The notes under the pieces were generated by a model. The model saw only the letters and a program-made list of their open reading frames with translations, did no database searches and was not told the DNA's origin. Positions 1,148 through 48,464 of a stretch of DNA of 64,000 bases are shown here, in pieces. This DNA is from a virus (Duplodnaviria; Caudoviricetes), in the IMG/VR virus record IMGVR_UViG_2864522212_000004, positions 32,001-96,000 of that record. The stretch is one strand, 5' to 3'. Numbering within the stretch: the first letter of the stretch is position 1; the number at the start of each line of letters is the position of its first letter. The position numbers and the translations under genes were made by a program.

Positions 1148-1171
1148 TATGTGGACATATTCAGTATAACA
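1148..1171 (-). promoter_or_regulatory. Conserved promoter/operator motif copy 1 (TGTTATACTGAATATGTCCACATA)
   Basis: Extended -10 TGnTATACT followed by palindrome TATGT-CC-ACATA; repeated 8 times in window. Confidence 0.8.
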
Positions 1172-1189
1172 TGTAAAATACAATATGGT

Positions 1190-1213
1190 TGTTATACTGA
1201 AGAAGTCCACATA
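1190..1213 (+). promoter_or_regulatory. Conserved promoter/operator motif copy 2 (TGTTATACTGAAGAAGTCCACATA)
   Basis: Divergent to copy 1; followed by GAGGAG RBS and TTG start at 1229. Confidence 0.75.
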
Positions 1214-1228
1214 AAAAGAGGAGGAGCG

Positions 1229-1672
1229 TTGACCAATCCGAAGAAAAACGGAGACCTGATGCTGCGGGTCCGGTATGACAGCGGAGCCGAACTCGCGGGT
1301 CCGGCTGTCATCACCGACGAGGGAGCCTTGCTTGTTTCGTTGGGCGGCGCCGCTTCCATGCTTGTGCAACGCGCGGATGGTAGTCTGCCGCCGCACATCA
1401 CCTTCGTGGATATACGGCCTAGTCATGTGGGATACGGGCTGCCGCTGACCGACGACATGGCGTACATGGCGGTGACCGCCATGCTGCGTGATGCGGTGGG
1501 CCTGCCGTTGAACGAGGCCGCTGACCGGTACGAATCCTGGCTGAACCGGGTGAGTCGGGCCGCGATCGAGAAGTGGGTGGACTCCCTGTCCATGCGCGAA
1601 TCGACCCAATTGCATGTGAAATACCTGGGCCGTGACGGTGCGGGCCATCCGAAGGAAGAGGAGGACGCATGA
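1229..1672 (+). CDS. Hypothetical protein; C-terminal half paralogous to 4938..5405
   Basis: RBS + TTG; shared GLPLTDDM...PKEExDA segment. Confidence 0.7.
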   Translation: MTNPKKNGDLMLRVRYDSGAELAGPAVITDEGALLVSLGGAASMLVQRADGSLPPHITFVDIRPSHVGYGLPLTDDMAYMAVTAMLRDAVGLPLNEAADRYESWLNRVSRAAIEKWVDSLSMRESTQLHVKYLGRDGAGHPKEEEDA

Positions 1673-1745
1673 CGCTGATCGAGCATGAGGCGCGCGAATA
1701 CTCCGATATGCGGTACATCATGCGCAAAGCCGAAATGAGCATCAA

Positions 1746-2105
1746 ATGAGCGTAAGAGTGGAAACAACCTACTTGGCGACATGCGACTACCCGGACTGTC
1801 ACATGACTTACGACTTCTGGGAGTTAACCGAGGAAGACGCAATCCTTGAAGTTATAGACAATGGAGAATGGCTATGCCTGTTCGCCGGTGACAATAAGCC
1901 GAGATTCTTCTGTCCCGCGCACTTGCGATACGTGCAAAACTCGCGGAATGTCTGGTCGAACGTATTTTACGATTCCAACAGTCCATACACGCAAACGACC
2001 TCGCACGCCTTGAACAGGTTCTACGAGGATATGAGCACACCGCAACCACTGCCAAAACTGCAATGCGATGACACCATACTCGCCGTTCTGCAAAACGAAA
2101 ACTAG
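1746..2105 (+). CDS. Hypothetical Zn-finger protein (CDxxxC...CPAH)
   Basis: ORF track; Cys/His pattern shared with 2592..2909. Confidence 0.7.
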   Translation: MSVRVETTYLATCDYPDCHMTYDFWELTEEDAILEVIDNGEWLCLFAGDNKPRFFCPAHLRYVQNSRNVWSNVFYDSNSPYTQTTSHALNRFYEDMSTPQPLPKLQCDDTILAVLQNEN

Positions 2106-2115
2106 GAGTGAAACC

Positions 2116-2304
2116 ATGACTACGAACGTGATTGATGCAATCCGCGAGAAAGAAGCTGATGCGCACGCAGAGCGGGAAGAGGCGTTTGCAGAGAGGAATC
2201 GGTTAAACCAAGCGTTTTTTGACGGGAAGCTTATCGCATACGCGGAAGTACTCAGGCTGCTCGGGGAAGACTTGGAGGAAAACGATGGCTACGAACGTAA
2301 CTGA
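2116..2304 (+). CDS. Small hypothetical protein
   Basis: AGGAG RBS, ATG 2116, coupled to next gene. Confidence 0.65.
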   Translation: MTTNVIDAIREKEADAHAEREEAFAERNRLNQAFFDGKLIAYAEVLRLLGEDLEENDGYERN

Positions 2305-2617
2305 AAAAGACAAGACCCTGAACGACGTAATCGAATGGTGCGGGGAACAGGTGTCCGGAATCGAAAAAAAGATTCCCACGGCGTCGGACGCGGATTTCCT
2401 CAACGGCGAACGATGCGCACTGCTGGCCGTCGCGGCGTATTGCGGAATAGGCGTCTGTACGGGCATGCACCCGGAATGCGTGCACTGCACGGTCCGCCAG
2501 TTGGAGCAGGCGCAGGCCGAAGGCCCGGCAACTCCCGACGTCTCGCCGAGCGACGCATACCGTCGGACGCACGCAAAGGGACGGAGGCTCGATGGCAAGA
2601 ATCAAAGAAACGTTTGA
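2285..2617 (+). CDS. Hypothetical protein
   Basis: GGAGG RBS, ATG 2285. Confidence 0.55.
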   Translation: MATNVTEKDKTLNDVIEWCGEQVSGIEKKIPTASDADFLNGERCALLAVAAYCGIGVCTGMHPECVHCTVRQLEQAQAEGPATPDVSPSDAYRRTHAKGRRLDGKNQRNV

Positions 2618-2909
2618 CAGCCGCGCTTGGTTCATGCTCGAATGCGATGACCACAACTGCGAACAACGGTTCGACGACAGCCAATGGTATGCGTACGAGG
2701 ACGATCTGCTGGCCGACGCGAAGGACGACGGCTGGCAGATCCTGTACAAGGACGAGCATCCCGAATTGGAACGCGACATGCACTACTGCCCGGCGCACCG
2801 GCTGCCCGAATGCGCGACATGCACGAACAACATGATCGATTCGACCGGCTGGAAGAACGGACAATGTCCCGAATGCATCAAGGAGGAGATCCCGATTGAA
2901 CGGTCATGA
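2592..2909 (+). CDS. Hypothetical Zn-finger protein
   Basis: CDDHNC...HYCPAH...CATC...CPEC; GGAGG RBS. Confidence 0.7.
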   Translation: MARIKETFDSRAWFMLECDDHNCEQRFDDSQWYAYEDDLLADAKDDGWQILYKDEHPELERDMHYCPAHRLPECATCTNNMIDSTGWKNGQCPECIKEEIPIERS

Positions 2910-3756
2910 TTTCACGCGCGAACAGAACATGGAGGCTCGTATCAGATTGGCTGCGGCGCGCCGCGAACTGGCGGATGCGGTCAACGATGCCACGACCGGC
3001 ATCGGCTGTCTGACCTGCGACGACCCGCAGACCATGAATCATATCCGCGCATGCTGGAAACGAATCTACGACCGGTATCTCGAAACGGACAGTCTGATCG
3101 CCGACCTGGCCGCCTGTGCGCGAAACATCACGGACGGCGGCGAATGGAAGCCGAGTGAACTCGCAACGGAATCGAAGCCCATAGACATGGCCGAAGGATG
3201 CGCCTGCTTCACCGCGGAGACCCCGGACCGGGTCCTCATCACCCCGTCGGAGCCGACGCCGGGCGAGAACACGGCGAAACGTCTCGCGAACACGCTGAAC
3301 GCCCTGACGGGGGATGTTCTCCTGGATGCGACCGGCATCCGCCTGCTCGGCACCCGATTCCTGTTCGCCTACCATGGCCGGCTCGACAGGCCCGTCGATT
3401 ATGGCGTGAACCTGACCAGCATGAGGTTCCCCGACCGGCTCGGCCTGCTCGACCGGGCGGACCGGCATCCGGGGTTCCTCCCGTTGCGCCCCGTCGTCGC
3501 CAACGGGACCGGCGCATTGGAACGGTCGGGACGCGAACTGTGGGCGATCACCGCGCGTACGCTCGGCCGGCTGCCGCACGGACGGTTCTTCGTGGATCTG
3601 ACCATGTTCGCGGACCATCCGAAGATACTCGAACGGTTCGCCGTCCGTTACGGGAAATACCTGAAAGACAACCGGACCGCCCTGGACGCGGCCATCATCG
3701 ACCCGACCGGCCTCGTCGCCCGCCACGTCGCCACCATCAAACCGAAATGGGATTAA
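2896..3756 (+). CDS. Hypothetical protein
   Basis: AGGAGG RBS + TTG; 286-aa ORF in operon. Confidence 0.7.
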   Translation: MNGHDFTREQNMEARIRLAAARRELADAVNDATTGIGCLTCDDPQTMNHIRACWKRIYDRYLETDSLIADLAACARNITDGGEWKPSELATESKPIDMAEGCACFTAETPDRVLITPSEPTPGENTAKRLANTLNALTGDVLLDATGIRLLGTRFLFAYHGRLDRPVDYGVNLTSMRFPDRLGLLDRADRHPGFLPLRPVVANGTGALERSGRELWAITARTLGRLPHGRFFVDLTMFADHPKILERFAVRYGKYLKDNRTALDAAIIDPTGLVARHVATIKPKWD

Positions 3757-3759
3757 GCA

Positions 3760-3948
3760 ATGGGCTATGTTCGAATCATGTGGGTCGGAGCCAATCTTCT
3801 CGCACTCATTCCTCTGGCGCCGCTGCTCAGATCGAAAGACCTGAGGTTAGGACGATTGCATGCGGCCATCGCGTTCACAATCATGTTCTCGGAGCTGGTT
3901 TCGTGGCTGTTGTTCCTCGGCCTATCCGTTTTGGAAGGATTTTTCTGA
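3760..3948 (+). CDS. Small membrane protein
   Basis: Two hydrophobic segments; in operon. Confidence 0.55.
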   Translation: MGYVRIMWVGANLLALIPLAPLLRSKDLRLGRLHAAIAFTIMFSELVSWLLFLGLSVLEGFF

Positions 3949-3957
3949 TGGACTTAT

Positions 3958-4005
3958 CGAATCGCGCCGTAAGACCACAGGCTTCAGTCGTGGGGAGGAA
4001 GTCAA
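3958..4005 (+). mobile_element. 48-bp IS200/IS605 left-end/right-end hybrid (mini element or recombination scar)
   Basis: TTAT|13 nt|AAGA + hairpin CCACAGGCTTCAGTCGTGG + GGAGGAAGTCAA tail like the right end at 16236. Confidence 0.7.
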
Positions 4006-4248
4006 TTGCCTGAATCGGGGATCGTCGGACCGGCCGAACCTTGCGACGGCCGCGACGGGGAATGGCCGGTGGAATGGGACGGCGGGCACGGTCTGCTCGT
4101 CGTCCGCAGGTTGAAGGCCGAACTCAAGGAGATTCGCTGATGCACAGAGGATTCTGCACGGATTGCGGCGCGTACGCGGCCTTGGGCGAAAACGACAGAT
4201 GCGCCGCCTGCGACGCATGGCGTCACAGGGAGGAGGAAAGGCAGGATC

Positions 4249-4941
4249 ATGTCTGAATGGTGGGACCGTTACCTGTTCGACGATCTGATTGGGTTGGAGG
4301 CCGCGGCCGTGGCCTCGGACGGCAGCCGGCATATCGGCCCGTTCGTCCGTTTTGGGGATTATCTGACGGTAGACGATACATGCGTCTTCACACGGAAGGA
4401 CAAGGGCGATGGCGTGCGGCTCATGGAAGAAGTCGACCATGTGCGTCTGCGTCCCGAGGAGCCGTTCTGGCAGGGTCGTTTTCTGGACGAGCTGGAAGGA
4501 GTCCGGGTGCGCGTCGAATTCGGGGGACGGCGTGGGGCGTTCGAGGGGCCGCTGGAACCGTTTGACGGCGTATTGGGCCTCCGGGCCGGCGGCCGTGGCA
4601 TGGAATACGTGTTCGGCGATTCCGGCTACCGGTTCGCCCAACCGGGCTTCGTCAGGGTCAGACCTGTGGAAGACCAGCCGGACGAACCGGTGCCGGCCAT
4701 CAACGCCTCCCGTCTCATCGAATCCCGGACCCTGCTGCGCGTGGCCCGCCGTCAGCTCGCCGAAACGGAGAATCTACTAACCCAATCATTTTCTCGGCTA
4801 CCGCGTTTCAGCAAAGAGGATGCCAGCCGAATGGAAGCCCGCCGGCATGATATCGAAAACAAGATGTTTGAGCTGCGCGAACTGATTGGCGAACAATCGT
4901 ACGATCTGAACTCAATCGAATCGAAAGGACAAACAAGATGA
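4249..4941 (+). CDS. Hypothetical protein with C-terminal coiled coil
   Basis: ORF track, RBS, coupled to next gene. Confidence 0.7.
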   Translation: MSEWWDRYLFDDLIGLEAAAVASDGSRHIGPFVRFGDYLTVDDTCVFTRKDKGDGVRLMEEVDHVRLRPEEPFWQGRFLDELEGVRVRVEFGGRRGAFEGPLEPFDGVLGLRAGGRGMEYVFGDSGYRFAQPGFVRVRPVEDQPDEPVPAINASRLIESRTLLRVARRQLAETENLLTQSFSRLPRFSKEDASRMEARRHDIENKMFELRELIGEQSYDLNSIESKGQTR

Positions 4942-5405
4942 ACGATGGAAAAAGGCAAGTCATGGGCGAGTCGAAACCAGACGAGAATCCTATTGCCACC
5001 ATCCATTACGAGAACGGCACGGAGCTGACCGGAAAGGCCGTCACCCTACAAGATGGAACAGTTGGAGTCAGGATTCCCGGCGAATTCTTCAAGACGGCGC
5101 TCCTGCCTGACGGTTCGATGCCTGATGGCGTCAAATCGGTGGATATCGGCCCCAAGCATGTGGAGGGCGGTCTCCCGCTGACCGACGACATGGTCTGCAT
5201 GGCGGTCACGGCCATGCTGCGCGACGCGGTCGGATTGACGTCGGGCGAGGCATCGGATGCGTATGAGACATGGCTGAACCGGGCGAAAAGGGCCACAATC
5301 GAGCATTGGGTGGACTCCCTGCCCATACGCGAATCCACGCGACTGCATTGCAAGTATCTCGACCGTGACGGAGCCGACTATCCGAAGGAAGAGGGGGACG
5401 CATGA
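4938..5405 (+). CDS. Hypothetical protein; C-terminal half paralogous to 1229..1672
   Basis: ATGA overlap; shared segment. Confidence 0.7.
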   Translation: MNDGKRQVMGESKPDENPIATIHYENGTELTGKAVTLQDGTVGVRIPGEFFKTALLPDGSMPDGVKSVDIGPKHVEGGLPLTDDMVCMAVTAMLRDAVGLTSGEASDAYETWLNRAKRATIEHWVDSLPIRESTRLHCKYLDRDGADYPKEEGDA

Positions 5406-5629
5406 TGTTGATCGAGCATGAGGCGCGAGTCGGACTGCCGCGCATGTGGGAGCATCCCAGACGCACCCGCACCCGGCGCGGCGGCGTCGTGGCGAGCATG
5501 GTCGGCGGATATACGGCGATACTGCTCGTCCGCCAGCCGAACGGCGTGGAGAACAGTATTCGCAGGCAATGCTCGACCCTGAACGAGGCCGAAAAATGGC
5601 TGGACGAACAGATGGGAGAGGACGAATGA
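5402..5629 (+). CDS. Small hypothetical protein
   Basis: ATGA overlaps at both ends. Confidence 0.65.
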   Translation: MMLIEHEARVGLPRMWEHPRRTRTRRGGVVASMVGGYTAILLVRQPNGVENSIRRQCSTLNEAEKWLDEQMGEDE

Positions 5630-6963
5630 GCGGCCGCGAGAAACCGGATGCGCCCGGACTGTGGCGGGATGCGAACGAGAAAACGGTCGTGGCCTGCATG
5701 GAATCCGGCGAGCTCGCGATACGGGATGCGGACACCGGCGAGATCCTGTCCGCGGGACAGCTGGAACAGGCCGCACCGTTCCAGCGAACCGAATGGAAGG
5801 GGATAGACCTGACCAGGGCCGGGTTCTCCGCCATGCCCGACACGGCGGGATGCTGGAGCGACGCGAACGGCACGCTCTGGCTCATCACAGGCGGCGACGG
5901 GATCGACGGGCACATCTTCCGGCTGAAGGAAGAGGGCCGCGAATGGGAATGCGCGCCTTGTTCCGGCATCACCGTGAGGATGCTCCACGAATGGGGCCCG
6001 TGGGCACGCTGCGACTTCAATCCGAAGGATGATGAAGCCGTTCGTTTTGACTGGTGCAAGCCGTGGATCGCCGATCATGGTTGGGATGATGATATGTCCG
6101 AACCCGCATCGTCTCTGCTGGCTCGTATCAAGGAGATTCGGAAGAGTCTGCCGGAGGAGAACGGCCTGTGGAGGTTCGGACATGCCGGGTCCGGCGTCGT
6201 CTTCGGGGACGGCGGCGGGAAGCGCCTGTTCCTGTTCGATTCGGGCGGAGGTTTCCTGGACGGGGGTTTGGGCTCATGCACACGGCTCCGACTCGGCATT
6301 CCGGTCGGTTCCGCGCCGATCCCGAACCTGCCGGGCGTGTGGATGGACAAGGACGGGAACCTGTTGGCGGTGTCCGGGGAACGTCGGGTGAGGATTTGGA
6401 ACAACCATGACTGGATGGCCGAAGAGCTTGACGACGATTCCGGGGAACCGTCCGCGCATGGCCCGTACACCCGGTATTCGCTCCAAACCGTCGAAGAGGT
6501 CCCATGGAAGCCGGAATCCGGCGATTCCACTCCGATCCATGAGGGGAGCCGCACCGTGCATCTCCCGGATGTCCGATCGTTCGGCCGTCTGGAACGGGAC
6601 AAGTGGCTTGCCGTGAAGAACCTTGAGGAGAGCGCCGAACTGGTGGAGGCCTGCAAGCAGTGGCTGAAGGCCTGTGATCCGGCCGATCCGAGCAGCATCG
6701 GCGACCAGTTCGACGACCATGCGAACTGCCTCGCCTGCTACGGGGTGAACGTGGGCGGCGAACTCGGCGACGACCGGGACAAGGCGAAGGCCGGCTGGAT
6801 AGGCCATGTGCGCGACCAGCGTCGCCAAGCCATGCTCGACGAGCTCGCCGACGTGCTGCAGACGGTAGGCAACCTGATCACGGCGTTCGGCATCACCGAT
6901 GAGGAGGTCGAACGGGCGATGAGCGACTGTCTGGAACGCAACAGGCGGAAAGGACGGCTCTGA
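5626..6963 (+). CDS. MazG-like nucleotide pyrophosphohydrolase with N-terminal tandem repeats
   Basis: C-terminus KNLEESAELVEA...DELADVLQ is the MazG ExxE...ExxD signature; four PxxxGxW repeats in N-terminus. Confidence 0.7.
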   Translation: MSGREKPDAPGLWRDANEKTVVACMESGELAIRDADTGEILSAGQLEQAAPFQRTEWKGIDLTRAGFSAMPDTAGCWSDANGTLWLITGGDGIDGHIFRLKEEGREWECAPCSGITVRMLHEWGPWARCDFNPKDDEAVRFDWCKPWIADHGWDDDMSEPASSLLARIKEIRKSLPEENGLWRFGHAGSGVVFGDGGGKRLFLFDSGGGFLDGGLGSCTRLRLGIPVGSAPIPNLPGVWMDKDGNLLAVSGERRVRIWNNHDWMAEELDDDSGEPSAHGPYTRYSLQTVEEVPWKPESGDSTPIHEGSRTVHLPDVRSFGRLERDKWLAVKNLEESAELVEACKQWLKACDPADPSSIGDQFDDHANCLACYGVNVGGELGDDRDKAKAGWIGHVRDQRRQAMLDELADVLQTVGNLITAFGITDEEVERAMSDCLERNRRKGRL

Positions 6964-7217
6964 TGGAGACCACGAGAATCTGGGATTCCCGCAACAACAG
7001 GCATGCGACGGTCGAACACGAGACGTTGAGACCATGCCCGTTCTGCGGCGGCACGCCACGAATCGACGATGATGTGGACGATACGACGGAACGGTACACG
7101 GTGCGCTGCGACTGCGGCGGGAGCATGCCGGGCCGGTACGTTCCGATCGACCCATCGTTCCAGACCCGCGTCACCTGCCTGCATTCGGCGGTCGAGAAAT
7201 GGAACAGGAGAGGCTGA
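6963..7217 (+). CDS. Lar-family restriction alleviation protein-like
   Basis: LRPCPFCGG...VRCDCG...AVEKWNRR pattern. Confidence 0.75.
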   Translation: METTRIWDSRNNRHATVEHETLRPCPFCGGTPRIDDDVDDTTERYTVRCDCGGSMPGRYVPIDPSFQTRVTCLHSAVEKWNRRG

Positions 7218-7549: not shown

Positions 7550-7554
7550 ACCGG

Positions 7555-10181: not shown

Positions 10182-10182
10182 C

Positions 10183-16641: not shown

Positions 16642-17081
16642 CAGTGGTAGACAAAAATCTAATCGTAGACACCATTAGTCAAATAGGTTCAGTCGCATTA
16701 GATGCGGCCCGAGATAATGCAATAGACAATGTCAATGAGGAAGTCAATCAGGCGTTAGCTTTCGAACGGAAACAGGAAAGGAAGCATGTTGCTCGTGTAT
16801 TCGCTGAATTAGGTATTGACAGGCAGAAGGCAATCAATCTTCTCGTCTTTGAATGGGATACAGATAGAAGAGACGCTGAAGAGCTGATGTTGGAGGCTCA
16901 TCGCATTTACTGGCCTTTGGAACGATTGAAACGCCATTTGAGAAACGAGGATTGGACCATGTCCGAAATCAGCGATTTTCTTCACGACTATGAAGTTGCG
17001 CGACAATTGAGAACCAATAGAAGGCTGTCTGATCTGACCGCTGCTGGTCTAGTCGATTGGCTCCAAAAGAATCAGGACTGA
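16638..17081 (+). CDS. Hypothetical protein (lower GC), coupled to MmeI remnant
   Basis: GTGA overlap, GAGG RBS. Confidence 0.7.
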   Translation: MTVVDKNLIVDTISQIGSVALDAARDNAIDNVNEEVNQALAFERKQERKHVARVFAELGIDRQKAINLLVFEWDTDRRDAEELMLEAHRIYWPLERLKRHLRNEDWTMSEISDFLHDYEVARQLRTNRRLSDLTAAGLVDWLQKNQD

Positions 17082-17141
17082 TTGCATTGCAATGTGGCCT
17101 ATCTGTCTTGTACGGGATCAAGGAAGACTGGCCACATTGTT

Positions 17142-17507
17142 CTATTCTTCTGGCTTGCTGAGGCCGACTCCCGTCTGTACGCCGAATTCGAATTGTTCCA
17201 GCTTGTCCGCGAATGTATCCAATTCGATTGCCGATACACGGCCGGTTATGCTTGCACCGTGGTTTGATACCCTGATGCCATAACGATTTCCTCCATCGTC
17301 CCAAACATCGAATCGCAGGTCTTCTATTCTCTCTAGTTTGTTCGCGGATGGTTCCTTAAGCACGCTGTCGATAAGCGTAAGCAGCGTATGTGCAGCATTC
17401 GGAGACAGATTCAAACGGTAATGCAGCAGACCATCATCAAACTCGATTTCGATTACGTTCGAATCGAGTCTCGTGCAGTTCAAGGAAATATCAGGCATAT
17501 TCCCCAA
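17142..17507 (-). CDS. Hypothetical protein
   Basis: ORF track; start uncertain. Confidence 0.55.
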   Translation of the reverse strand: MGNMPDISLNCTRLDSNVIEIEFDDGLLHYRLNLSPNAAHTLLTLIDSVLKEPSANKLERIEDLRFDVWDDGGNRYGIRVSNHGASITGRVSAIELDTFADKLEQFEFGVQTGVGLSKPEE

Positions 17508-17527
17508 GATATTGGCAAAGGCAGACC

Positions 17528-17575
17528 GGGTTCTTGGCGTGGGCTTCTTTCGGAAGAAATACGGGCCAAGAACCC
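17528..17575 (-). terminator. Stem-loop after 17583..18428
   Basis: GGGTTCTTGGC...GCCAAGAACCC. Confidence 0.5.
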
Positions 17576-17582
17576 ATGAATG

Positions 17583-18428
17583 TCAGTGCTTCTTCTTTTT
17601 GTTTCCGCCGTCGACCCAGTCGAAAGCGGTCTTGAATGCTTCTCGTGCGGTGTTGGTCTGATCGTAGTAGTCGCTGCCCATGTCGCTTTTCTTATAGTCG
17701 ATGACGGTGTTGTTCACGTCTCCGCGACCGTCTGAGAAGGTGACTCGCCATCCTTTGCTGCCACCTAGGTAGAAGAGTTTCGCGCGACGATGGTTGTTAT
17801 CGGCGTCGGTTGGCCACACCTGCGGGTACGTGTTGCCGGTCAATTCCAAATCGGGGTGGCCTTGGAGAGCCATGTTCGCGCCTTCCTCAGCCGACTGCGG
17901 GTCACAACCCTTGGACTCCAAATACTCGCCGAAGGAATAATCCATGTCATCCGTGTAGGTGAGTTCCGGATTGGTGAGATACACTTCGGCATCACCATCT
18001 TCGGCGGCTTCACTGGCAAGTTCGGACATTTGCTGCGGGTCGTTCCAAGCATCCTCGTTGCCATCCATGTAATCGTTGCCCCATGCGATATACCGGTCGC
18101 GATCCAATTCCGGCAGCTTCTCGAACTCCTCACGGCTGACGTACAGGCCGGATTCCACGCGATAGCCTTCATCATCGGGGCCGAACTTACGTTCCGAGTA
18201 CTCCCTGTTGGCGATGTCGATAAGCTTCTGATCCAGTTCCTGCATTCGCTTCACACCGGTCTCATAGGTTTCAACCGGCGCGCCGCCGGTATTCGATTGC
18301 TGATTCTGTTCGAATCGTTCGAGTACGTCACCGGTCGGCATGCTGCTGGTTTTGCCTTCATCCGCATAAGTGCCGTCACGGTTTCGACGTTGCTGTTTTG
18401 CCTGTGCTGATTTTCTGGAGTCGACCAT
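17583..18428 (-). CDS. Acidic hypothetical protein with shared basic N-terminal leader
   Basis: KSAQAKQQRRNRDGTYADE; AAGGAG RBS. Confidence 0.8.
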   Translation of the reverse strand: MVDSRKSAQAKQQRRNRDGTYADEGKTSSMPTGDVLERFEQNQQSNTGGAPVETYETGVKRMQELDQKLIDIANREYSERKFGPDDEGYRVESGLYVSREEFEKLPELDRDRYIAWGNDYMDGNEDAWNDPQQMSELASEAAEDGDAEVYLTNPELTYTDDMDYSFGEYLESKGCDPQSAEEGANMALQGHPDLELTGNTYPQVWPTDADNNHRRAKLFYLGGSKGWRVTFSDGRGDVNNTVIDYKKSDMGSDYYDQTNTAREAFKTAFDWVDGGNKKKKH

Positions 18429-18512
18429 TGTTTCTCCTTGCTATTTTGGGTTGAATGTTTGATGTCGTAGGGAGGTTGTCTATTTACGTTTTCGAGCTGT
18501 CTGCCGTAACTC

Positions 18513-18983
18513 TTACCTTTTGTTGTTTGTCAGAACGTTGAAGAATGACCGCTGCCGTTCATCCAACCATGTGGGGGAATGGCCGGCGTCAATATCCGAT
18601 TGCTTGATCAGGTACGCCACTCGGTTTGGGGTTGAGCTTTTCGCGTCGCGAAACTCGTACACTGTGTTTCCTGTCGGAGTGTTCCTTCGGTGTATGCGCC
18701 ATCCGTCGATTGATGCGTCATCCTGTTCGTCGAATCCTCCGGAGAAACCTACATAGGGGGAGTTGTCGAGTGCGTCCATCCCCTCGGCCCACAGTTCACG
18801 ATTCTCTTCGCTCATGGTCCCGTCGTAATAGGATGCGGGCGGAGACACGACGGATGTTTGCCGCTCATATTTTCGTATGGATTCGTCGGTTGGCATACCG
18901 GATTGACGGTGCTCGTCTCGGAATCGTCCGGTGTTGGGGTCTCGCAGCTGTTGGCGGGCTTGGATTGATTTGTTGGCTGGCAT
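18513..18983 (-). CDS. Hypothetical protein with shared basic N-terminal leader
   Basis: KSIQARQQLRDPNTGRFRDE. Confidence 0.75.
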   Translation of the reverse strand: MPANKSIQARQQLRDPNTGRFRDEHRQSGMPTDESIRKYERQTSVVSPPASYYDGTMSEENRELWAEGMDALDNSPYVGFSGGFDEQDDASIDGWRIHRRNTPTGNTVYEFRDAKSSTPNRVAYLIKQSDIDAGHSPTWLDERQRSFFNVLTNNKR

Positions 18984-19090
18984 GTTGTTTTTTTTTTCGT
19001 TGGAAGGGGCTGTCGTGTTTTTCTGGTTCCACGTTATCTATTGTTTTCTGGTTTTCTCCTGTTTCTTCGTTATCTCACCACCAAGATATC

Positions 19091-19114
19091 TGTTATACTG
19101 AGTATGTCCACATA
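19091..19114 (+). promoter_or_regulatory. Conserved promoter/operator motif copy 3
   Basis: TGTTATACTGAGTATGTCCACATA. Confidence 0.8.
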
Positions 19115-19136
19115 AAGATAATGAAAGAGGAAACCA

Positions 19137-19469
19137 ATGGCACTCACCATCGAAGAACAACACGAAACCAACGACCTCGACCACGACATCCTCGCCACCC
19201 GCGAAGTCACCTTCATTTGCGGGCACAAGCGCGTCTACGAGGACATCAGCGCCTGCCAGAAAAGCTGGATGGAACGCTGCCAACGGTGCCCCAACTGCCA
19301 GTACAAGCGCGACAAGGCATACGTCGAAAAGCTGTCTGCCGAAATCAACTCACCAGAACTCCTCGAGATGTGGCTCAAAGAAACCCCTCCTACTAAGACC
19401 AGCAGGAAAGGAGCCATCAGACTATTTAGGCAAGGAACCTCAATAAACACTGACTTTTCCGCGCCATAG
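19137..19469 (+). CDS. Hypothetical Zn-binding protein
   Basis: CGH...CPNC; GAGG RBS. Confidence 0.7.
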   Translation: MALTIEEQHETNDLDHDILATREVTFICGHKRVYEDISACQKSWMERCQRCPNCQYKRDKAYVEKLSAEINSPELLEMWLKETPPTKTSRKGAIRLFRQGTSINTDFSAP

Positions 19470-19573
19470 CATCTTGTGTGAGCATGTCCAGTAGTTCACC
19501 TACTTTGGGTCTTGCAGCTTTTGCTGTCGTAGGATCATTGGTTTCTATGAAACGTCATTCTATGTGGACAAAT

Positions 19574-19609
19574 AATCCTCCGGTGCCGTATGGCATCGGG
19601 GGATTTTTT
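19574..19609 (+). terminator. Rho-independent terminator
   Basis: AATCCTCCGGTGCC-GTAT-GGCATCGGGGGATT + T tract. Confidence 0.7.
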
Positions 19610-19642
19610 ATTTCAAACCTTGCATGATTTTTTTCATTTACA

Positions 19643-19666
19643 TGTTATACTGAATATGTCCACATA
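19643..19666 (+). promoter_or_regulatory. Conserved promoter/operator motif copy 4
   Basis: TGTTATACTGAATATGTCCACATA exact. Confidence 0.8.
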
Positions 19667-19683
19667 GAATGAAAGAAACCACA

Positions 19684-19851
19684 ATGAACACGTACAAGAA
19701 CTTCGAAAAAAACGCCAACATCATACTCGCCATAACATGCGTCCTCTGCGCATGCTTCATGTGGAGAGTCACAGGGCTCGCAATGGTCATCGCATCAATC
19801 GGATTCGCAACCTCAGGAACACTGATGATTACCCACTTCGTGACGCGATGA
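19684..19851 (+). CDS. Small 2-TM membrane protein
   Basis: Hydrophobic; first gene after motif. Confidence 0.6.
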   Translation: MNTYKNFEKNANIILAITCVLCACFMWRVTGLAMVIASIGFATSGTLMITHFVTR

Positions 19852-24162: not shown

Positions 24163-25320
24163 TTAGTTTAGGGTGGCGGTGCCGGTGGATAGCGGGATTA
24201 GTTGGGAAAGTAGTGGGCTGATCCATGCCCATTCGGCGAATAGTAGCGTTATCCAGAAGAATAGGCAGGTGGTTGCACGTAGGATGATCGGGCCTGATTG
24301 GATGCGCCAGATTAGTGTCATGAGGTTCCATGATGTTGTTTTCTTCTGGCGGTCTTTGTGCCAGATGAGCCATGACAGGCCTGTGAGGATGCACCAGATT
24401 GTTAGTGTTGCGGTGAACAGGAGTTGGCTGACTGGAGCGTATTTGCTGGCTTTTTGGATGCTGCGTGTGATAGTGGCTTTTGCTTGCTGTATGGGAGTTG
24501 ATTGTTTGGAGGCGAGTTCTTTTGGTATTCCGTCAGCAGTGTTGGCCCAATATTTGAACCGTCCGCGGACGATGAGTCTAGCACTCAGACTGTCCTGTTC
24601 ATCTAGCGAGTATTTACAGGTGGTGAGTGTGATGAGGCGCGCGTCTTTTTGGTCTGTCTGGTCGGCGATGACGGCGGCATCATCGGGGGTCGTCATCCAA
24701 GATGATTGCATTTCATACACGTACCAGTGGTCGGCTGTCTGAATGATGATCGGATCCCCGGGTTTCAACGTGTCCGCCGGCCCTAGGTCACCGGGGGTGC
24801 GGTGTCCGGCGTAGGAGCTGTTGCCGATGCTTCCGGGCATGACGGTTCCTTGGTAGTGTCCGATACCGTAGTTGTCAAGGACTTTCAGATCGGTGCCTTC
24901 TTGGATGGCTCGTTGCCATTCGGCGCCGAACCGGGGGATTCGCATCCAGCCGATCACTGTCGAGTATTCGGGTTCCGGCTCGGTGGGTGGTTCTCCGGTT
25001 TGGGGTTTGGCGATACGGGTTGAACCGTCAGTTTTAGTGGGTTGGGCTGTTTTGAATCCTTGGTTGGTGACGATGGTCTGTTGCGTGTGGATCTGATCCA
25101 TTCCGTTGCCGATGTACACCCATCCGACGTGCATCACTAGGATGATGGCGAGAAAAATCGACATGCCTGCGAACAATTGCAACAGCCGGTAACCCACTCC
25201 TTGTGATTGTCTGTCTTCTCTCTTAGGAACGGTGTTCTCTTCAATATTCCGGAGCGAAATGTCTTCAGTATTGTGCTGAGGACGGAGTCGGCCTGGTCTT
25301 GAGGCGGCATGTCTTCCCAT
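24163..25320 (-). CDS. Class E sortase
   Basis: IPRFG, GHY.GT.MPG.IGN...AGHR, LITLTTC...R; TM segments. Confidence 0.88.
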   Translation of the reverse strand: MGRHAASRPGRLRPQHNTEDISLRNIEENTVPKREDRQSQGVGYRLLQLFAGMSIFLAIILVMHVGWVYIGNGMDQIHTQQTIVTNQGFKTAQPTKTDGSTRIAKPQTGEPPTEPEPEYSTVIGWMRIPRFGAEWQRAIQEGTDLKVLDNYGIGHYQGTVMPGSIGNSSYAGHRTPGDLGPADTLKPGDPIIIQTADHWYVYEMQSSWMTTPDDAAVIADQTDQKDARLITLTTCKYSLDEQDSLSARLIVRGRFKYWANTADGIPKELASKQSTPIQQAKATITRSIQKASKYAPVSQLLFTATLTIWCILTGLSWLIWHKDRQKKTTSWNLMTLIWRIQSGPIILRATTCLFFWITLLFAEWAWISPLLSQLIPLSTGTATLN

Positions 25321-30516: not shown

Positions 30517-30540
30517 TATGTGGACATATTCAGTATAACA
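30517..30540 (-). promoter_or_regulatory. Conserved promoter/operator motif copy 5
   Basis: Exact match; heads the ~5-kb operon 25407-30498. Confidence 0.8.
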
Positions 30541-30611: not shown

Positions 30612-30912
30612 GGGGTGTGTTTACCCTATTTAAGTTTTGCGTGATGATTGTCGTATGCGTACGCCGAGGTATGACATCACGCCTGACCGGTTCATGAGGG
30701 TCGCGCATCCGTTGCCGCGATAGCACGGCAACGTGGCGGTCGACAACCACACGTTCGTCAACGCCCTGCCGTGGATGTGCCGCACGGGAGCCCGTGGAGG
30801 GACCTGCCGGAGTGCTGCGGCAAGTGGGTCACCGTCTGCCAACTGTTCAACCGCTGGTCCAGGAACGGCGCGACAGGGCGCCTGTTCGCGGCATTGCAGG
30901 AGAAGCGGATCA
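30612..30912 (+). pseudogene. IS5-family transposase remnant (left end + N-terminus)
   Basis: RYDIT...VDN..F.NAL.W..RTGA/PWRDLPE..GKW.TV...FNRWS..G with a TAG stop and a frameshift; CTAG then GGGTGTGTTTAC end. Confidence 0.8.
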
Positions 30913-31593
30913 ACGGGGCGGAATCTCAGCCACACCAGACTTTCTGTTTTCTTTTTCCTGCTTTCGTGCCTTGTCCCATGCGGCTCGGTTCCATGGGAGT
31001 ACCGGCTTCTTCGGCGGCTCCCCGTATTCCGGTAGGATGAACGTGTAGCCTGTCTCGCTGGTGGATGCTGTAAGCCGCGTTATGGGAGCGCTCCACCGTC
31101 CGGAAGCGTGTGCGTTGAGTTCCGCGCGCTGCCGTTCGAGCCGTTGGCCTGTTTCCTCCAGCTCGTTGATGTCAGGGTTTGAGGTGGGTGGGATGATTCG
31201 TTTGATGGTGACGTTGCCGGACTGGTATTCGACGGTCTGGTAGTCGTATAGGCCGAAATCTTTTTCGAATCCCGAACTGTGCGTGACCGTCAGGGTGCTG
31301 TTGTCGGGGCCTGTGAAACGGCGTGTGTCCTCATGGTAGCTGCCATATCCGTCGGCGTTGCCGTCATGTTTTGTTCCGGCTTCCGTCCATCCGTCCGGCA
31401 GCGTGATTGGTGGTGGGGTGATTTTGCCGTGCTTTTGCAGGCGCTGGAGTACTGGGATCTGCGAGGTCTGTTGCTCGTATGCGCTTAGTGTTGCCGCGTC
31501 GGGGAAGCCGAAGCTGTTGAGTTCGTCTGCGAATCGTCCGTCTGGGGTGCGTCTCCGGCGTTTCGCTTGTGCTGTTCGGCTGGATGTCGTCAA
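30910..31593 (-). CDS. Hypothetical protein with shared basic N-terminal leader
   Basis: RTAQAKRRRRTPDGRFADE. Confidence 0.75.
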   Translation of the reverse strand: MTTSSRTAQAKRRRRTPDGRFADELNSFGFPDAATLSAYEQQTSQIPVLQRLQKHGKITPPPITLPDGWTEAGTKHDGNADGYGSYHEDTRRFTGPDNSTLTVTHSSGFEKDFGLYDYQTVEYQSGNVTIKRIIPPTSNPDINELEETGQRLERQRAELNAHASGRWSAPITRLTASTSETGYTFILPEYGEPPKKPVLPWNRAAWDKARKQEKENRKSGVAEIPPR

Positions 31594-33120: not shown

Positions 33121-34131
33121 TTACCGCTTGTCGCCCGGTGTCGTGTAGTCGTGTTCGCGTACCTGTCGTTCACGGTTGAAACAGTTATGCAGCAGGTTGA
33201 CGGTGCTGAAGTTCGCGGACTCGTCGTCGCGGACTGCTTGCAGGATGCGCTGCCGGTTGTCCCAGATCAGCTTGTCAGCCTGTTTCTCGGTGAGGCCTTC
33301 CAAGTCGCCGTCTTGGTTGAAGTGCACGTACTTGTGCTTGTCGGGGTCCCATCCACCGTACTTGCGGGCCTCTTTGATCTGTTCCTCGCTCATGTCTTCC
33401 AGATGCAGGTCGTGGGGGTTGATGGATGGGGCTATGCGCAGGTCGCCGATCGTGGATTCGCCCTTGTTCTGCTCGTCGTGGTTGATGGTCTGCCATGCGG
33501 CGGCCTTCAACGCGGTCATGTTCTCCTCGTCGGGTTTGAAGAAGATCTGGTCTCGGATGGCGGAATCCATCATGTCGTGGCGTTTCTCCTCCAGTTCAGT
33601 GTCGAGGTCGAAGTCGTCATCCCCGGATTTTTCGGCGAGATCGTCCACGAGGTCGTTGTCGGTGAAGCCCCAGTCGTCGCCGTGGATTTCGGTCAGTTGG
33701 CCGCTGTCTATGCGTTGGCTGAGGTCTTCGGTGGTGATGAAGTCCATCCTGTGGTTCACGTACCCGTCATGGTCGATGGACAGGGTGGTTTCCCCGTCTT
33801 CGTCGCCGTCGCTTTCCATTACGGAGTAGGCGTGCCAGCCGGACGGCACCTTGTTGCGGTCGATTCGCCCATCGTCCAAGGCGTAGCCGTTGATGGTGGA
33901 TCCGTCGGGCATGTCGAATTCGATATGGCGTGCCTCGTAGGGGTCGTCGAATGCGCCGGTGGCTGTGAGCAGCTGGTTGAAGTCAGGCTCCGTGTCGTCG
34001 GTGAGGAGGCTGGCCACCTGTTGGATTTTTGTGTCGGAGGGGAGGCTGTCCTGCTTGTCTTCGTCCGCGAATCGTCCGTCCGAGCTGCGGCGTCGTTGGC
34101 GGGCTTGGGCTGACTTGTTTTGGTTGGTCAT
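33121..34131 (-). CDS. Acidic protein with shared N-terminal leader and LPD28-like domain
   Basis: KSAQARQRRRSSDGRFADE; RIDRNKVPSGWHAYSVMESD...VNHRMDFITTEDL resembles LPD28. Confidence 0.75.
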   Translation of the reverse strand: MTNQNKSAQARQRRRSSDGRFADEDKQDSLPSDTKIQQVASLLTDDTEPDFNQLLTATGAFDDPYEARHIEFDMPDGSTINGYALDDGRIDRNKVPSGWHAYSVMESDGDEDGETTLSIDHDGYVNHRMDFITTEDLSQRIDSGQLTEIHGDDWGFTDNDLVDDLAEKSGDDDFDLDTELEEKRHDMMDSAIRDQIFFKPDEENMTALKAAAWQTINHDEQNKGESTIGDLRIAPSINPHDLHLEDMSEEQIKEARKYGGWDPDKHKYVHFNQDGDLEGLTEKQADKLIWDNRQRILQAVRDDESANFSTVNLLHNCFNRERQVREHDYTTPGDKR

Positions 34132-34145: not shown

Positions 34146-34169
34146 TATGTGGACATATTCAGTATAACA
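34146..34169 (-). promoter_or_regulatory. Conserved promoter/operator motif copy 6
   Basis: Exact match. Confidence 0.8.
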
Positions 34170-34253: not shown

Positions 34254-34277
34254 TGTTATACTGAATTAGTCCACATA
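34254..34277 (+). promoter_or_regulatory. Conserved promoter/operator motif copy 7
   Basis: TGTTATACTGAATTAGTCCACATA, divergent to copy 6. Confidence 0.75.
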
Positions 34278-34339
34278 AAATTTTCGTAGAAGGCACCAAT
34301 CATGCTCGGAAAACATCAAACAACAGGGCAGCGAGCCTG

Positions 34340-45055: not shown

Positions 45056-45319
45056 TTGTCTTTCCTTATACTATGTCGGTCAGGCTGAACCGTGTCTCCA
45101 ATACACGGTCGCCGTCCAGGCCTTGTTTCGTGGACAATTTCAGAATGCATCCAATGATATGCGCTTGCAAGCGCAACGGTAAGGTGGCCGCTCACAAAAA
45201 ATATCGGTCAATTTCAATAAAAAACCGGTTAATTACAAGATTTGACGTTATGGTAAAAACCGCAAGAGTCCAGTGACCATCACTGGTGACAAAATATCCT
45301 TCCTATCAGAGGAGACGAT

Positions 45320-48289
45320 ATGGGGAGAAACAACAATCCCACTCGCGGTTCCACAATCCGACATGTGGTCCGCACGATCGCGGCGGCCAGTGCGGCCGTC
45401 GCCACTTTGGCGGCGGGGTTGCTCGTCGCGGGCACGGCCGACGCGGCCACCATGCGCGACCCGTTCGAACGCTCCATCCAGAACGGCAACCCCGGTTTGT
45501 GGACGAACGTGGGCACGATCACGTTCAGCAACGGGAAGAAGTACGAGAACATGGCGCAGTCGCTGGGCGTCGTCGACAGGGTCAACGGCAAGAACACGTA
45601 CTGCATCGAGGCCGGCACGCTCTACACGGGCACGACGGGCGACTGGGGCGACTGGACGGACGAGCGGACGAAACCGGACGCGCAGCGGCTCGCCTGGCTG
45701 GCCGACAGGTACAACGGGGACCGGGATGATCTCACGCAGGCCGCGATCGCGGGCCTCATCCACCAGAAGCTCGACCCGATGGGCAACGAATACCTGAGCG
45801 GCCTCCGGCAGCTCGGCTGGGCGGACGAGCCCAGCTGGGACGCGTACACGGCGAAGATGAACAGCCTGTGGACGGAGGCGGTCAACGGCACGCCCAAGGA
45901 CCTCGACATGCAATACCGGTACACGACCGGCAAAAGGAAAGGCCTAGTCACCCCGAGCATCATGAACGGGAACGGCGTCGAAATCGCGGGCATCCAGTAC
46001 ACCGTGACCCTGAAGGGCCCGGCCGTGTTCGACCAGACCGGCACGAACACGATCAGCGGCACCACCACGAACGAGGCCATCCACCTGTCATGGACCGCAA
46101 CAGGCAATGGCAAGGTTACTAGCATTGTTCAGCATAAGATCCCGAAGGCCACCAGACTGGAATCCCCGAACCAGAACCTGATGGGCCCGACCGACCCCCA
46201 GACCGTGTCGAAGAACATCCAGTTCGAGGTGCTGAACAACTTCAAGCCGACCATCCAGTCCGACCAGTCGGACCATCGCATCGAATACGGGCATGCGCCC
46301 GAGGATGATCTGACCTGGCATGTGGACCCGACGGGCGGCGACTGGATCCAGGGCGCGACCATCAAGAGCACCGGCACCCTCTACTACTTCGCGAAGAAGC
46401 CGGTCGAGGGCCGGACGACCGTCAAGGATGGGGTGAAGGCCGCGACCGCGACCGTCGCCGGCGACAGGGACGGTGCCACCAGTCATGTGGACGCCTCCTC
46501 CATCGCCATGGACCCCGGTTTCGTGAAGGCCCACCCGGGAGCCACCCCGTCGAGCCTGCCCGCCACCGGCTGGTACACGTGGGTGTGGGAGATCACGCCC
46601 GGCATGCAGGACGCCAACATGAGGCAGTACCTGTCCCCGGACTACGACTGGTCTGACAACGTGCTGGAAGCGGAGACCACGCTGCACGTGCGCGGCATGC
46701 AGCCGACCATCACGTCCAGCGTGTCCGCCGCCTACAGGACCGACCAGAGCAAGGTGACCGGCGCCGACGGCATCGAACGGCCCGCCGTCCAGATCGGCTC
46801 CGCGGCCGCGTCCGACAGGACCGATGTCGTCTACCTTGAAAAGGGCGGCGTCATCCGCGACAAGGTCACGCTGGGCGTGTCCGACGTGAACGGTGACGGC
46901 AAGACCGACACCGCCGACTGGCTGCACACCAAGGACGGCCAGGGCGAAGGCAGGGAAACGGAAGCCAACCAGATCACCATCCGCGTGAACGGCACGCTCT
47001 ACGGGGGCATGACCCGCGAACAGGCCGAACAGGCGCAGAAGGATACCGCCGCAGGCAAGACCGTCGAACTGCCCAAGCAGGCCGTGAAGCTCGCCACCAC
47101 CACGTTCACGACGAACAAGGCCGGCGACTACCTCCTGTCCAGCAGGAAGGGCGAGAGGCCTGCCGGCGTGTGGAAGGCCGAAAACGGGATCGACCTGACG
47201 AACCCGCCATCCGGATACGCGACGTTCGTGTACGACATCGCCAACAGGGACCAGGACACGAAAAACCAGACCGGCATCGAACCGTCCAGGGACTACCCGT
47301 TCGCCAAGGACGTGCACGAAGCCCCGTTCACGGCGGATGAGACCGTCATGTTCCGCCTCACCCCGAAGCTCGACTCCACAGTGTCCAGCAAGGAAGTCAA
47401 GGCGGGGGAGACCACCGTCGACAAGCTCGTCGTCGCCAAGACCAACGAAAAGGACGTGTGGCCCACCTACCCGGAGACCAACGTCACCGAAGGCGAAACC
47501 CCGAAGGGCACCCCGCTGAGCCTCGACTTCCACGGCGTCCTCTACAAGGTGAGTGACGACCCGTCCGCCGCGATCGAGGAAACCGACACCGTGCCCGAAA
47601 ACGCGGTGAAGGTTCACGAAACCGACATCAAGGATGTCACCAAGTTCGGCACCTACACGACCGACTCGTTCACCCTGACCGAATCGGGCACCTACGCTTG
47701 GCATTGGGTCATGACACCGAGCCTGACCGGCGACCAGAACCATAATCCGCTCGCCGCCCTCGCATGGCGTCAGCTCACCCACGGCAAGGTGCAGCACGCT
47801 TTCGGACTCGCATCCGAGATCGTGCGCGTCCGGAAGCCTGAAACACCGAAGTGCGAGGTGTCCACAAAGTCGCAGGGTGAGGTCACGTTCGAAAACGGCA
47901 AGGCCGACCTGCACGATGAGCTCCTGCTTAAGAACTGCTCGGATGCGGCCAAGGCTGAATTCGAATTGTGGAGGCAGGCCGACGGCGACCAGTCGGGAGA
48001 CGTGCTCATCACCGTCACCGGCAAGGTCGACGCGAAGGACGGCATCCACTCGCCGACCGTGACCGTGCATGAAACCGGCACCTACTACTGGCGTGAGAAG
48101 GTGTACGACCAGACGGGCAAGCTTATCTCCTATGGTGACGCGCGCAAACCGAACGAGACTGTGCTCGTCAAGGAGAAGGGTCTCGCCTCCACCGGTGTCG
48201 GCACCCCGATGCTCCTGTGGGCCGGGGTCCTCGCCGGAGCTGGTATCGCTCTCGCTCTGGCTGGTTCGAGGAAGCGTATCCGCCTGTAA
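45320..48289 (+). CDS. Cell-wall-anchored surface protein (LASTG), possible thioester-domain adhesin
   Basis: Signal peptide; YCIE..TQAAI pattern; Ig-like YxWxE repeats; GLASTG + TM + RKR. Confidence 0.85.
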   Translation: MGRNNNPTRGSTIRHVVRTIAAASAAVATLAAGLLVAGTADAATMRDPFERSIQNGNPGLWTNVGTITFSNGKKYENMAQSLGVVDRVNGKNTYCIEAGTLYTGTTGDWGDWTDERTKPDAQRLAWLADRYNGDRDDLTQAAIAGLIHQKLDPMGNEYLSGLRQLGWADEPSWDAYTAKMNSLWTEAVNGTPKDLDMQYRYTTGKRKGLVTPSIMNGNGVEIAGIQYTVTLKGPAVFDQTGTNTISGTTTNEAIHLSWTATGNGKVTSIVQHKIPKATRLESPNQNLMGPTDPQTVSKNIQFEVLNNFKPTIQSDQSDHRIEYGHAPEDDLTWHVDPTGGDWIQGATIKSTGTLYYFAKKPVEGRTTVKDGVKAATATVAGDRDGATSHVDASSIAMDPGFVKAHPGATPSSLPATGWYTWVWEITPGMQDANMRQYLSPDYDWSDNVLEAETTLHVRGMQPTITSSVSAAYRTDQSKVTGADGIERPAVQIGSAAASDRTDVVYLEKGGVIRDKVTLGVSDVNGDGKTDTADWLHTKDGQGEGRETEANQITIRVNGTLYGGMTREQAEQAQKDTAAGKTVELPKQAVKLATTTFTTNKAGDYLLSSRKGERPAGVWKAENGIDLTNPPSGYATFVYDIANRDQDTKNQTGIEPSRDYPFAKDVHEAPFTADETVMFRLTPKLDSTVSSKEVKAGETTVDKLVVAKTNEKDVWPTYPETNVTEGETPKGTPLSLDFHGVLYKVSDDPSAAIEETDTVPENAVKVHETDIKDVTKFGTYTTDSFTLTESGTYAWHWVMTPSLTGDQNHNPLAALAWRQLTHGKVQHAFGLASEIVRVRKPETPKCEVSTKSQGEVTFENGKADLHDELLLKNCSDAAKAEFELWRQADGDQSGDVLITVTGKVDAKDGIHSPTVTVHETGTYYWREKVYDQTGKLISYGDARKPNETVLVKEKGLASTGVGTPMLLWAGVLAGAGIALALAGSRKRIRL

Positions 48290-48318
48290 GGCGGTCACGC
48301 TGATCGGATAGAAACCTT

Positions 48319-48354
48319 GATGGGCTCATTCCGCCGTAGTGGAGTGAGCCCATC
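48319..48354 (+). terminator. Stem-loop terminator
   Basis: GATGGGCTCATTCC...GGAGTGAGCCCATC. Confidence 0.65.
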
Positions 48355-48440
48355 CTGCTAAAAGGGGTATGTCGGATTGGTATCAGGTTTTTCTCCTCTG
48401 TCCTGATGCTTATCCGACATGCCTTTTCTTCGTATATGCT

Positions 48441-48464
48441 TGTTATACTGAATATGTTCACATA
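48441..48464 (+). promoter_or_regulatory. Conserved promoter/operator motif copy 8 (upstream of ssb)
   Basis: TGTTATACTGAATATGTTCACATA. Confidence 0.8.

Follow-up and report, generated by a model that had tools for sequence, protein, structure and literature searches.

What reads a short sequence that stands, almost unchanged, before gene after gene of one replicon? This question is raised by a 64-kb stretch of DNA (the whole of it is hereafter called the window), which comprises bases 32001-96000 of the 136-kb IMG/VR record IMGVR_UViG_2864522212_000004 and in which a 24-bp motif occurs eight times. A preliminary description of this DNA had proposed that the motif joins a promoter to a palindromic operator, and that an element-encoded repressor keeps the genes behind it silent in the donor. 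The repeated motif is already known, having been published in 2024 for the pMP7017 family of Bifidobacterium plasmids. In this study, we suggest, giving the idea about an even chance, that the motif marks an element-specific promoter class, in which the host polymerase acts on one block of the motif (block A) and a plasmid-encoded factor, probably a repressor with plasmid-wide negative feedback, acts on the other (block B). What is new here is modest: the asymmetric conservation of the motif, its variant on a sister plasmid, its rare chromosomal copies, and comparative evidence against two candidate regulators.

The source record is classed in IMG/VR as a provirus with a CheckV completeness of 63%. 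It is a fragment of a conjugative megaplasmid of B. longum that belongs to the pMP7017 family. The DNA identity of the window was 96-98% to complete B. longum megaplasmids and 93% to pMP7017 of B. breve, and the gene content of the record and of its complete relative CP084013, which is shared with the pMP7017 relatives, is typical of a conjugative megaplasmid. The motif also occurs on at least 30 other IMG/VR contigs, which are probably misclassified in like manner. Megaplasmids of the pMP7017 type, the only known conjugative plasmids of the genus Bifidobacterium, have been reported in about 11% of B. longum strains and in about 10% of the screened gut microbiome samples, mostly those of infants and mothers.

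When the window was searched with up to three mismatches allowed, all eight of the copies described before were found, with 0-2 mismatches, and there were no further matches. No match was found in 100 dinucleotide-preserving shuffles of the window, and the number of 24-bp matches expected by chance is 0. Three copies lie on the minus strand and five on the plus strand (Table 1). All eight are intergenic and face a start codon, as had been claimed. The claimed distance of 14-30 bp to the gene start holds for seven of them, in which the end of the motif is 14-29 nt from the start codon, and fails for the copy at 34254(+), where the ATG at 24 nt opens only a 12-codon open reading frame (ORF) and the annotated gene start, taken from a 97%-identical plasmid, is at 62 nt. 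The 136-kb record has 14 copies with up to three mismatches and 17 with up to five, and CP084013 has 19 copies, which are dispersed on both strands over 169 kb and include divergent back-to-back pairs. In the record and in CP084013, too, the copies lie between genes and near gene starts, and none would be expected by chance.

Dineen, Bottacini, O'Connell-Motherway and van Sinderen (2024, Microb Biotechnol 17:e14405; PMC10832533) used RNA-seq-based promoter mapping in log-phase cells stably bearing pMP7017 and described a 34-bp motif, which in six highly expressed plasmid genes overlaps the -10. Baiting with this motif gave 13 further copies, so that there were 19 sites in total, and the presumed regulon was 56 genes, or 24% of the coding capacity (PMC10832533). 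The authors proposed a transcription-factor site that either inhibits or enhances transcription, named no regulator for it, and reported the motif in related plasmids and its absence from bifidobacterial chromosomes (PMC10832533). The last 21 nt of the window 24-mer are contained exactly in the published consensus, which includes TATACTGAATATGTCCACATA (PMC10832533); the core around TATACTGAATATGTCCACATA is exact in four of the eight window copies and has one or two differences in the other four. The two motifs are the same sequence over the -10, in the same plasmid family (93-98% DNA identity), and their gene sets overlap, including ssb, the methyltransferase and the sortase block. The 19 published copies lie less than 60 bp from start codons (PMC10832533), close to the distances given above. 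The extended -10 promoter that had been read from the window also agrees with the published mapping. There is no essential difference between the two, except that single chromosomal copies were seen in this study.

For the anatomy of the motif, we collected 117 distinct instances from the source record, CP084013 and 80 metagenomic fragments, which fall into 55 paralogous promoter groups with unrelated flanks. Because the collection was ascertained with the motif itself, conservation can be judged only in relative terms. Three stretches were nearly invariant, TG at positions 1-2, TA.ACTGAA at 4-12 and TCCACATA at 17-24, while positions 13-16 were the most variable part of the motif. Judged from this alignment, the motif is a bipartite and asymmetric unit, because positions 13-16 vary between two nearly invariant blocks: block A is TGnTATACT followed by GAA, an extended -10, and block B is GTCCACATA at about +1 to +9. 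Almost all copies have a purine at position 16, 7 nt past the -10, and this position is therefore the likely +1. There was no conserved -35 among the 55 groups, and TTGACA-like hexamers at 16 bp were found in a subset. The leader behind the motif is A-rich and has a strong recurrent ribosome-binding site of the GAAAGAGGAAACCA type.

The palindrome TATGT-NN-ACATA, which had been taken for the operator, did not withstand this comparison. It is exact in six of the eight window copies; its left arm, at positions 13-16, is the least conserved part of the motif across the 55 groups, while its right arm is invariant; and a second plasmid family keeps the right-hand block only. The two arms of the dyad are thus not both conserved, as would be expected of a symmetric operator for a dimeric repressor.

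This second family is represented by a sister megaplasmid in a genome of another Bifidobacterium species (G020), in which a 102.6-kb contig is distantly related to the megaplasmid, at a protein identity of 45-70%. Pieces of the sister plasmid were found on three more contigs of this genome, including a parA with 50% identity, and the G020 contigs C4, C23, C27 and C36 (loci L125-L136 and L139) total about 329 kb. The sister plasmid has at least 42 variant copies of the promoter, with the layout of a conserved CGGCGTGTC box, 16 nt, TATACTG, W-A-A-n-Y, GTCCACAC and a purine, and in most of the 42 copies the CGGCGTGTC box lies exactly 16 nt upstream of TATACT. These promoters have a -35 box but no TG extension, and the pMP7017 family shows the reverse; judged by sequence, such reciprocal use of a TG extension or a -35 box follows the logic of sigma-70-type promoters. 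The sister family retains TATACTG...GTCCACA, without conservation of the left arm of the palindrome, and its block B reads CACAC, as against CACAT in the pMP7017 family. Because this concerted change is family-wide and present in all copies, it argues for co-evolution of the motif with a factor carried on the element. Of the 49 occurrences of block B on the sister plasmid, 41 are accompanied by block A. Many sister-plasmid leaders also have a small 5' hairpin and an ACAGAG box before the ribosome-binding site. The variant gives a comparative handle on the reader and on the logic of control.

Outside the plasmids the motif is very rare. A degenerate 21-mer was scanned against one genome for each of 185,579 species and gave 11 single matches, about the number expected by chance, of which the only real one was in B. 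ramosum. Among 151 Bifidobacterium species genomes searched with up to three mismatches, 145 had none and six had one copy each; the reversed control gave 0, and by our own estimate about 0.1 would be expected by chance. These two scans bear out the claim that the motif is element-specific. The left half alone was no commoner than a reversed control in Bifidobacterium chromosomes, with a pattern that left out copies ending in A. The six copies of the genus scan sit 11-50 nt upstream of gene starts; two related species have the gene of a membrane protein there, and the others have genes for a GT2 glycosyltransferase, a GH94-like phosphorylase, an AAA ATPase and a 74-aa protein. One of the six loci is on a plasmid-like contig (in G020), and the other five are before chromosomal-looking genes, with plasmid homology only in the motif itself. 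These five copies (loci L112-L114, L116 and L117 of genomes G001, G014, G019, G035 and G061) have 2-3 mismatches and lie 11-35 nt upstream of genes for the membrane protein, the glycosyltransferase, the phosphorylase and the AAA ATPase, which is at odds with the published absence from chromosomes (PMC10832533).

We believe that the element-specific promoter class named above could work as follows. With the extended -10 of block A, the host housekeeping RNA polymerase would need no -35 to start, and block B would be an asymmetric recognition element, from the probable +1 to about +9, for a plasmid-encoded trans-acting factor. Because block B lies over the start site, this factor would most likely be a repressor. 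Its negative feedback would tie together about 19 transcription units and about a quarter of the genes, including ssb, methyltransferases, Lar, LPD proteins, parA, part of the type IV secretion system (T4SS) and probably a tmRNA/tRNA array, and it would entail a transient burst of expression once the plasmid enters a recipient. While the activity of the promoters is taken from the literature (PMC10832533), we infer that the factor exists, that it originates from the plasmid and that its sign is repressive. Besides the copy number, the published position of the -10 and the concerted change in the sister family, several observations count for this reading. ACTGAA and CCACATA are nearly invariant across the 55 groups, so that conservation extends well past the needs of sigma; the motif is essentially absent from host chromosomes in both scans; and a copy of block B alone, without a -10, adjoins a full copy in the window (19561-19570), which from its sequence fits a DNA-binding site that could act without a -10. 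Reading by the host polymerase fits because some copies have a TTGACA-like -35 at 16 bp and no sigma-70 domain was found on the plasmids.

Several points weigh against this reading. A single asymmetric site of 9 bp is unusual for a repressor. A reader protein was not identified among the regulators, sigma domains and motif-first genes compared on the plasmids and the sister contigs; the preliminary description had likewise considered a bound regulator plausible and had found none evident. Neither of the two regulators that could be recognized is a good candidate for the reader, as described below. Single copies stand before chromosomal genes in five Bifidobacterium species with no plasmid homologues nearby, and therefore the cassette seems to work, or to persist, without the plasmid. 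In addition, six motif promoters rank with the most highly expressed units of the established host (PMC10832533), and therefore any repression would be partial.

These last two points favor a different and, in our opinion, rather unlikely explanation, namely that the motif forms a self-sufficient expression cassette that lacks a dedicated regulator, that is read by host polymerase, ribosomes and RNases only, and whose extended -10, AT-rich discriminator, favorable initial transcribed sequence, A-rich leader and strong Shine-Dalgarno sequence are kept for high, host-independent expression. The leader is indeed cassette-like, with its A-rich stretch before the ribosome-binding site, and the small 5' hairpin is frequent in sister-plasmid leaders; the chromosomal copies moreover occur in species without sign of the plasmid. 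However, near-invariance at 20 of the 24 positions is not needed by the host sigma, and the left half, as noted above, is no commoner than its reversed control in the chromosomes. The two plasmid families show concerted differences although their host transcription machinery is nearly identical. The published regulon members also span from below threshold to high expression, with Lar moderate and the methyltransferase low in log-phase B. breve with pMP7017 (PMC10832533).

The promoters of the sister plasmid bring in another possibility, positive control, in which an activator, a sigma-appropriation pair or a very divergent sigma re-targets the host polymerase, like the middle and late promoter classes of phages. 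Promoters with the CGGCGTGTC box and without TG or a TTGACA-like -35 would be expected to be read poorly by an unaided housekeeping sigma, and the conservation across the whole polymerase footprint is also consistent with such control. Nevertheless, we think positive control unlikely. In the search of G000 (the source record, in record coordinates), CP084013 and the sister-plasmid contigs, there was no match to sigma-70 region 2, and region 4 gave sub-threshold matches only, to an XRE protein, a toxin-antitoxin helix-turn-helix (HTH) protein and frames on contig C23. The lack of sigma-70 region 2 or region 4 domains on the plasmids speaks against an element-encoded sigma, unless it is a very divergent one. 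The family of the window has a good extended -10, sometimes with a TTGACA -35, and should fire unaided; a factor at +1 to +9 would be badly placed for activation; and the single chromosomal copies in plasmid-free species would be dead promoters.

Several candidates for the reader were compared across the plasmids. The XRE regulator (215 aa, Pfam HTH_3; G000 2513-3160, minus strand) is divergent from a degenerate motif copy. No homologue of it was found in G020, the genome with the sister plasmid, and it was rejected as a general reader. An ImmR-like HTH protein is encoded together with an ImmA/IrrE protease, a zinc-ribbon protein and a divergent Cro-like gene at G000:C1:102993-105317, outside the window, and at 16989-19809 of CP084013. 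Between these two plasmids, whose motifs are identical, the ImmA proteins are 100% identical and the ImmR-like repressors only 41%, so that the latter is a poor candidate; the ImmR module more likely governs a separate module, perhaps the adjoining transfer genes. This ImmR/ImmA module looks like an exchangeable immunity-type switch. A ribbon-helix-helix (RHH) protein resembling ParG follows parA in both plasmid families, and the parA promoter has two 21-bp direct repeats with CCACAWA. A relaxed box pattern was neither enriched nor clustered in the plasmid, and the RHH protein is a weak lead. The first genes of the motif operons were also compared, since one of them might encode an autoregulated factor; the only ones common to both families are that of the Cys-rich 97-aa protein (19137-19469), whose sister-plasmid orthologue is also the first gene behind a motif, and a pair of 160/176-aa paralogues before the T4SS ATPase. 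These shared proteins had no Pfam DNA-binding match, and their fold is unknown.

We further speculated that block B is the site of a plasmid factor, which could be a protein of a new kind or else the RHH partition adaptor in the role of a global regulator, and that together with the -35 box of the sister family it makes up a superfamily-specific transcription programme. This stronger form of the idea is offered tentatively, and we expect it to fail sooner than to hold.

Because block B may form the first nucleotides of the transcripts, it could also act in RNA. The common first 8-9 nt would then be a tag that is read by a plasmid RNA-binding protein, an RNase or a base-pairing RNA and that controls stability or translation. 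The start of block B at the probable +1, with the ribosome-binding site within 15-30 nt, suits such a tag, and the 3' end of the 19091-promoter transcript has a perfect 16-nt complement to the 19643 leader just before a terminator. However, this complement is absent behind the orthologous gene of the sister plasmid, and block B almost never occurs without block A, as the counts for the sister plasmid showed; we regard a tag in RNA as very improbable. The complement itself (19553-19570), which lies directly before the strong terminator, may be the vestige of a motif copy in inverted orientation, or else a second binding site or an anti-leader RNA. Its absence downstream of the sister-plasmid orthologue led to the rejection of the anti-leader RNA.

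The features of the window are collected in Table 1. The partial copy and the full copy at 19643 sit on either side of a terminator-like hairpin, and since strong terminator-like hairpins lie directly upstream of two window copies, these are independent transcription units.

Table 1. Motif copies and associated features in the window, with the genes that the copies are placed to drive
Feature	Position	Strand	Mismatches	Context
Copy	1148..1171	-	0	Half of back-to-back divergent pair; drives 161-aa Cys-rich ORF 633-1118 and genes beyond
Copy	1190..1213	+	2 (both in variable positions 13-16)	Drives ORF 1229-1672 and operon of small unknown proteins, the last being Lar (6963-7217)
Copy	19091..19114	+	1	Drives Cys-rich 97/110-aa protein (19137-19469)
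Partial copy (downstream block only, no -10, inverted)	19561..19570	-		87 bp upstream of the full copy at 19643
Terminator-like hairpin (14 pairs and T run)	19574..19605	+		Predicted to insulate the 19643 promoter from upstream transcription
Copy	19643..19666	+	0	Drives 55-aa hydrophobic ORF (19684-19851)
Copy	30517..30540	-	0	Drives ~5-kb operon, 30498 to 25407, of acidic unknown proteins
Terminator-like hairpin	30591-30560			Precedes the 30517(-) copy
Copy	34146..34169	-	0	Half of divergent pair; drives LPD28 protein (34131-33121), 160-aa ORF and metallophosphoesterase (32448-31681)
Copy	34254..34277	+	2	12-codon mini-ORF, then run of small, partly membrane, proteins from 34340
Copy	48441..48464	+	1	Drives ssb (48492-49082) and N6/N4 DNA methyltransferase (49095-50225)

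Some further observations were made near the copies. The 12-codon mini-ORF has its own ribosome-binding site and precedes the first annotated gene (34278-34339), and it may encode a leader peptide. Three otherwise different proteins, one of them the LPD28 protein (window 30910-31593 and 33121-34131, and G000:C1:111495-112247), have a common basic N-terminus of about 25-40 residues, and all three are encoded in motif-driven operons. At G000:C1:134700-134730, outside the window, a short intergenic gap inside the DnaB operon has three TCCACA boxes, two of which are direct 7-bp repeats, and no -10-like element.

The preliminary description had named the regulon for establishment. Pfam confirmed SSB, an N6_N4 methyltransferase, LPD28 and Lar among the products of the genes downstream of the window copies, as had been described, and also found a sortase and a metallophosphoesterase; ssb, the methyltransferases, Lar and LPD28 are indeed genes with establishment or anti-restriction functions. 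The sortase gene had been listed among those without the motif. It has no copy of its own (24163-25320, minus strand), yet it lies 111 nt behind the 30517(-) operon, with no terminator-like site found between them, and transcription of the operon probably reads on into it; its orthologue is counted within the published regulon (PMC10832533).

In CP084013, the motif heads parA with its RHH partner (a degenerate copy), ssb with the methyltransferase, two LPD-type proteins, the Lar cluster (there with an RNA ligase and a phosphoesterase), a 3'-5' exonuclease and DivIVA-SecE-SecG-Dcm. Another degenerate copy heads an operon that runs into the large T4SS ATPase (a large ATP-binding protein and neighboring putative T4SS genes), and in G000 the DnaB-containing operon is motif-headed. 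At 148366-154240 of CP084013 (locus L120, 1477-7347), a copy faces a tmRNA and an array of 20 tRNAs, which lie on the same strand about 560 nt downstream and probably belong to the regulon. This array, together with the RNA ligase and phosphoesterase of the motif-driven Lar cluster, suggests a motif-driven set for tRNA supply and RNA repair. Many functions of the regulon fit establishment or anti-defence, and others do not. With parA, the T4SS operon, the DivIVA-SecE-SecG-Dcm genes and the tmRNA/tRNA array behind the motif, a regulon for establishment only was not upheld. The claim that these genes are silent in the donor finds no support, given the six motif promoters that are highly expressed in log-phase cells stably bearing the plasmid (PMC10832533). 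An establishment regulon silenced in the donor is more than the data show, and the published expression partly contradicts it.

Several well-known systems resemble the motif in part. For example, the Frpo/ssi promoters in the leading region of F-like and IncI plasmids bring about the zygotic induction of ssb, psiB and ardA, and they are long single-strand hairpins, on one strand only and in one leading region. Both there and here, ssb and anti-restriction genes stand behind a conserved upstream element of a conjugative plasmid. In contrast to Frpo/ssi, the window motif is a 24-bp duplex promoter that is found on both strands and spread over the whole plasmid, dispersed over the 169 kb of CP084013 instead of being in one orientation and clustered by oriT. 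The genes behind it are also expressed in established hosts (PMC10832533).

Another parallel is offered by plasmids with a short operator at many promoters. KorA/KorB of the IncP plasmid RK2, ArdK/StbA/KorA of the IncW plasmid R388 and omega of pSM19035 form global repressor networks, whose operators are palindromes or tandem heptads and whose binding proteins are known. As in these networks, the sites on one plasmid overlap core promoter elements and link genes for establishment, partition and transfer, and negative feedback would give a burst on entry into a new host. Unlike their operators, the block of the pMP7017 family is single, asymmetric and fused to an invariant -10. The omega/ParG-like RHH protein that follows parA here is linked to the motif only by the two CCACAWA-containing repeats of the parA promoter.

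Phages provide other examples of mobile elements with many copies of a short asymmetric site. The operators and stoperators of mycobacteriophage L5 are dozens of short asymmetric sites for one element-encoded protein, gp71; the stoperators block elongation and are not fused to promoters, unlike the pMP7017-family motif. The middle promoters of phage T4 join a host -10 to an element-specific upstream MotA box and require AsiA and MotA, and this upstream box resembles the arrangement of the -35 box on the sister plasmid. No AsiA or MotA homologues were detected here, and no sequence or protein homology to the L5 or T4 systems was established.

A promoter class of this kind, if it is true, would be the plasmid counterpart of the early and middle promoter classes of phages, with 19 to more than 40 transcription units per replicon. 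Since about a quarter of the genes are under the control of a single promoter type, its reader protein would be the master switch for establishment, partition and part of transfer in these megaplasmids. The motif cassette is also a ready-made strong expression signal for Bifidobacterium, a genus with few genetic tools.

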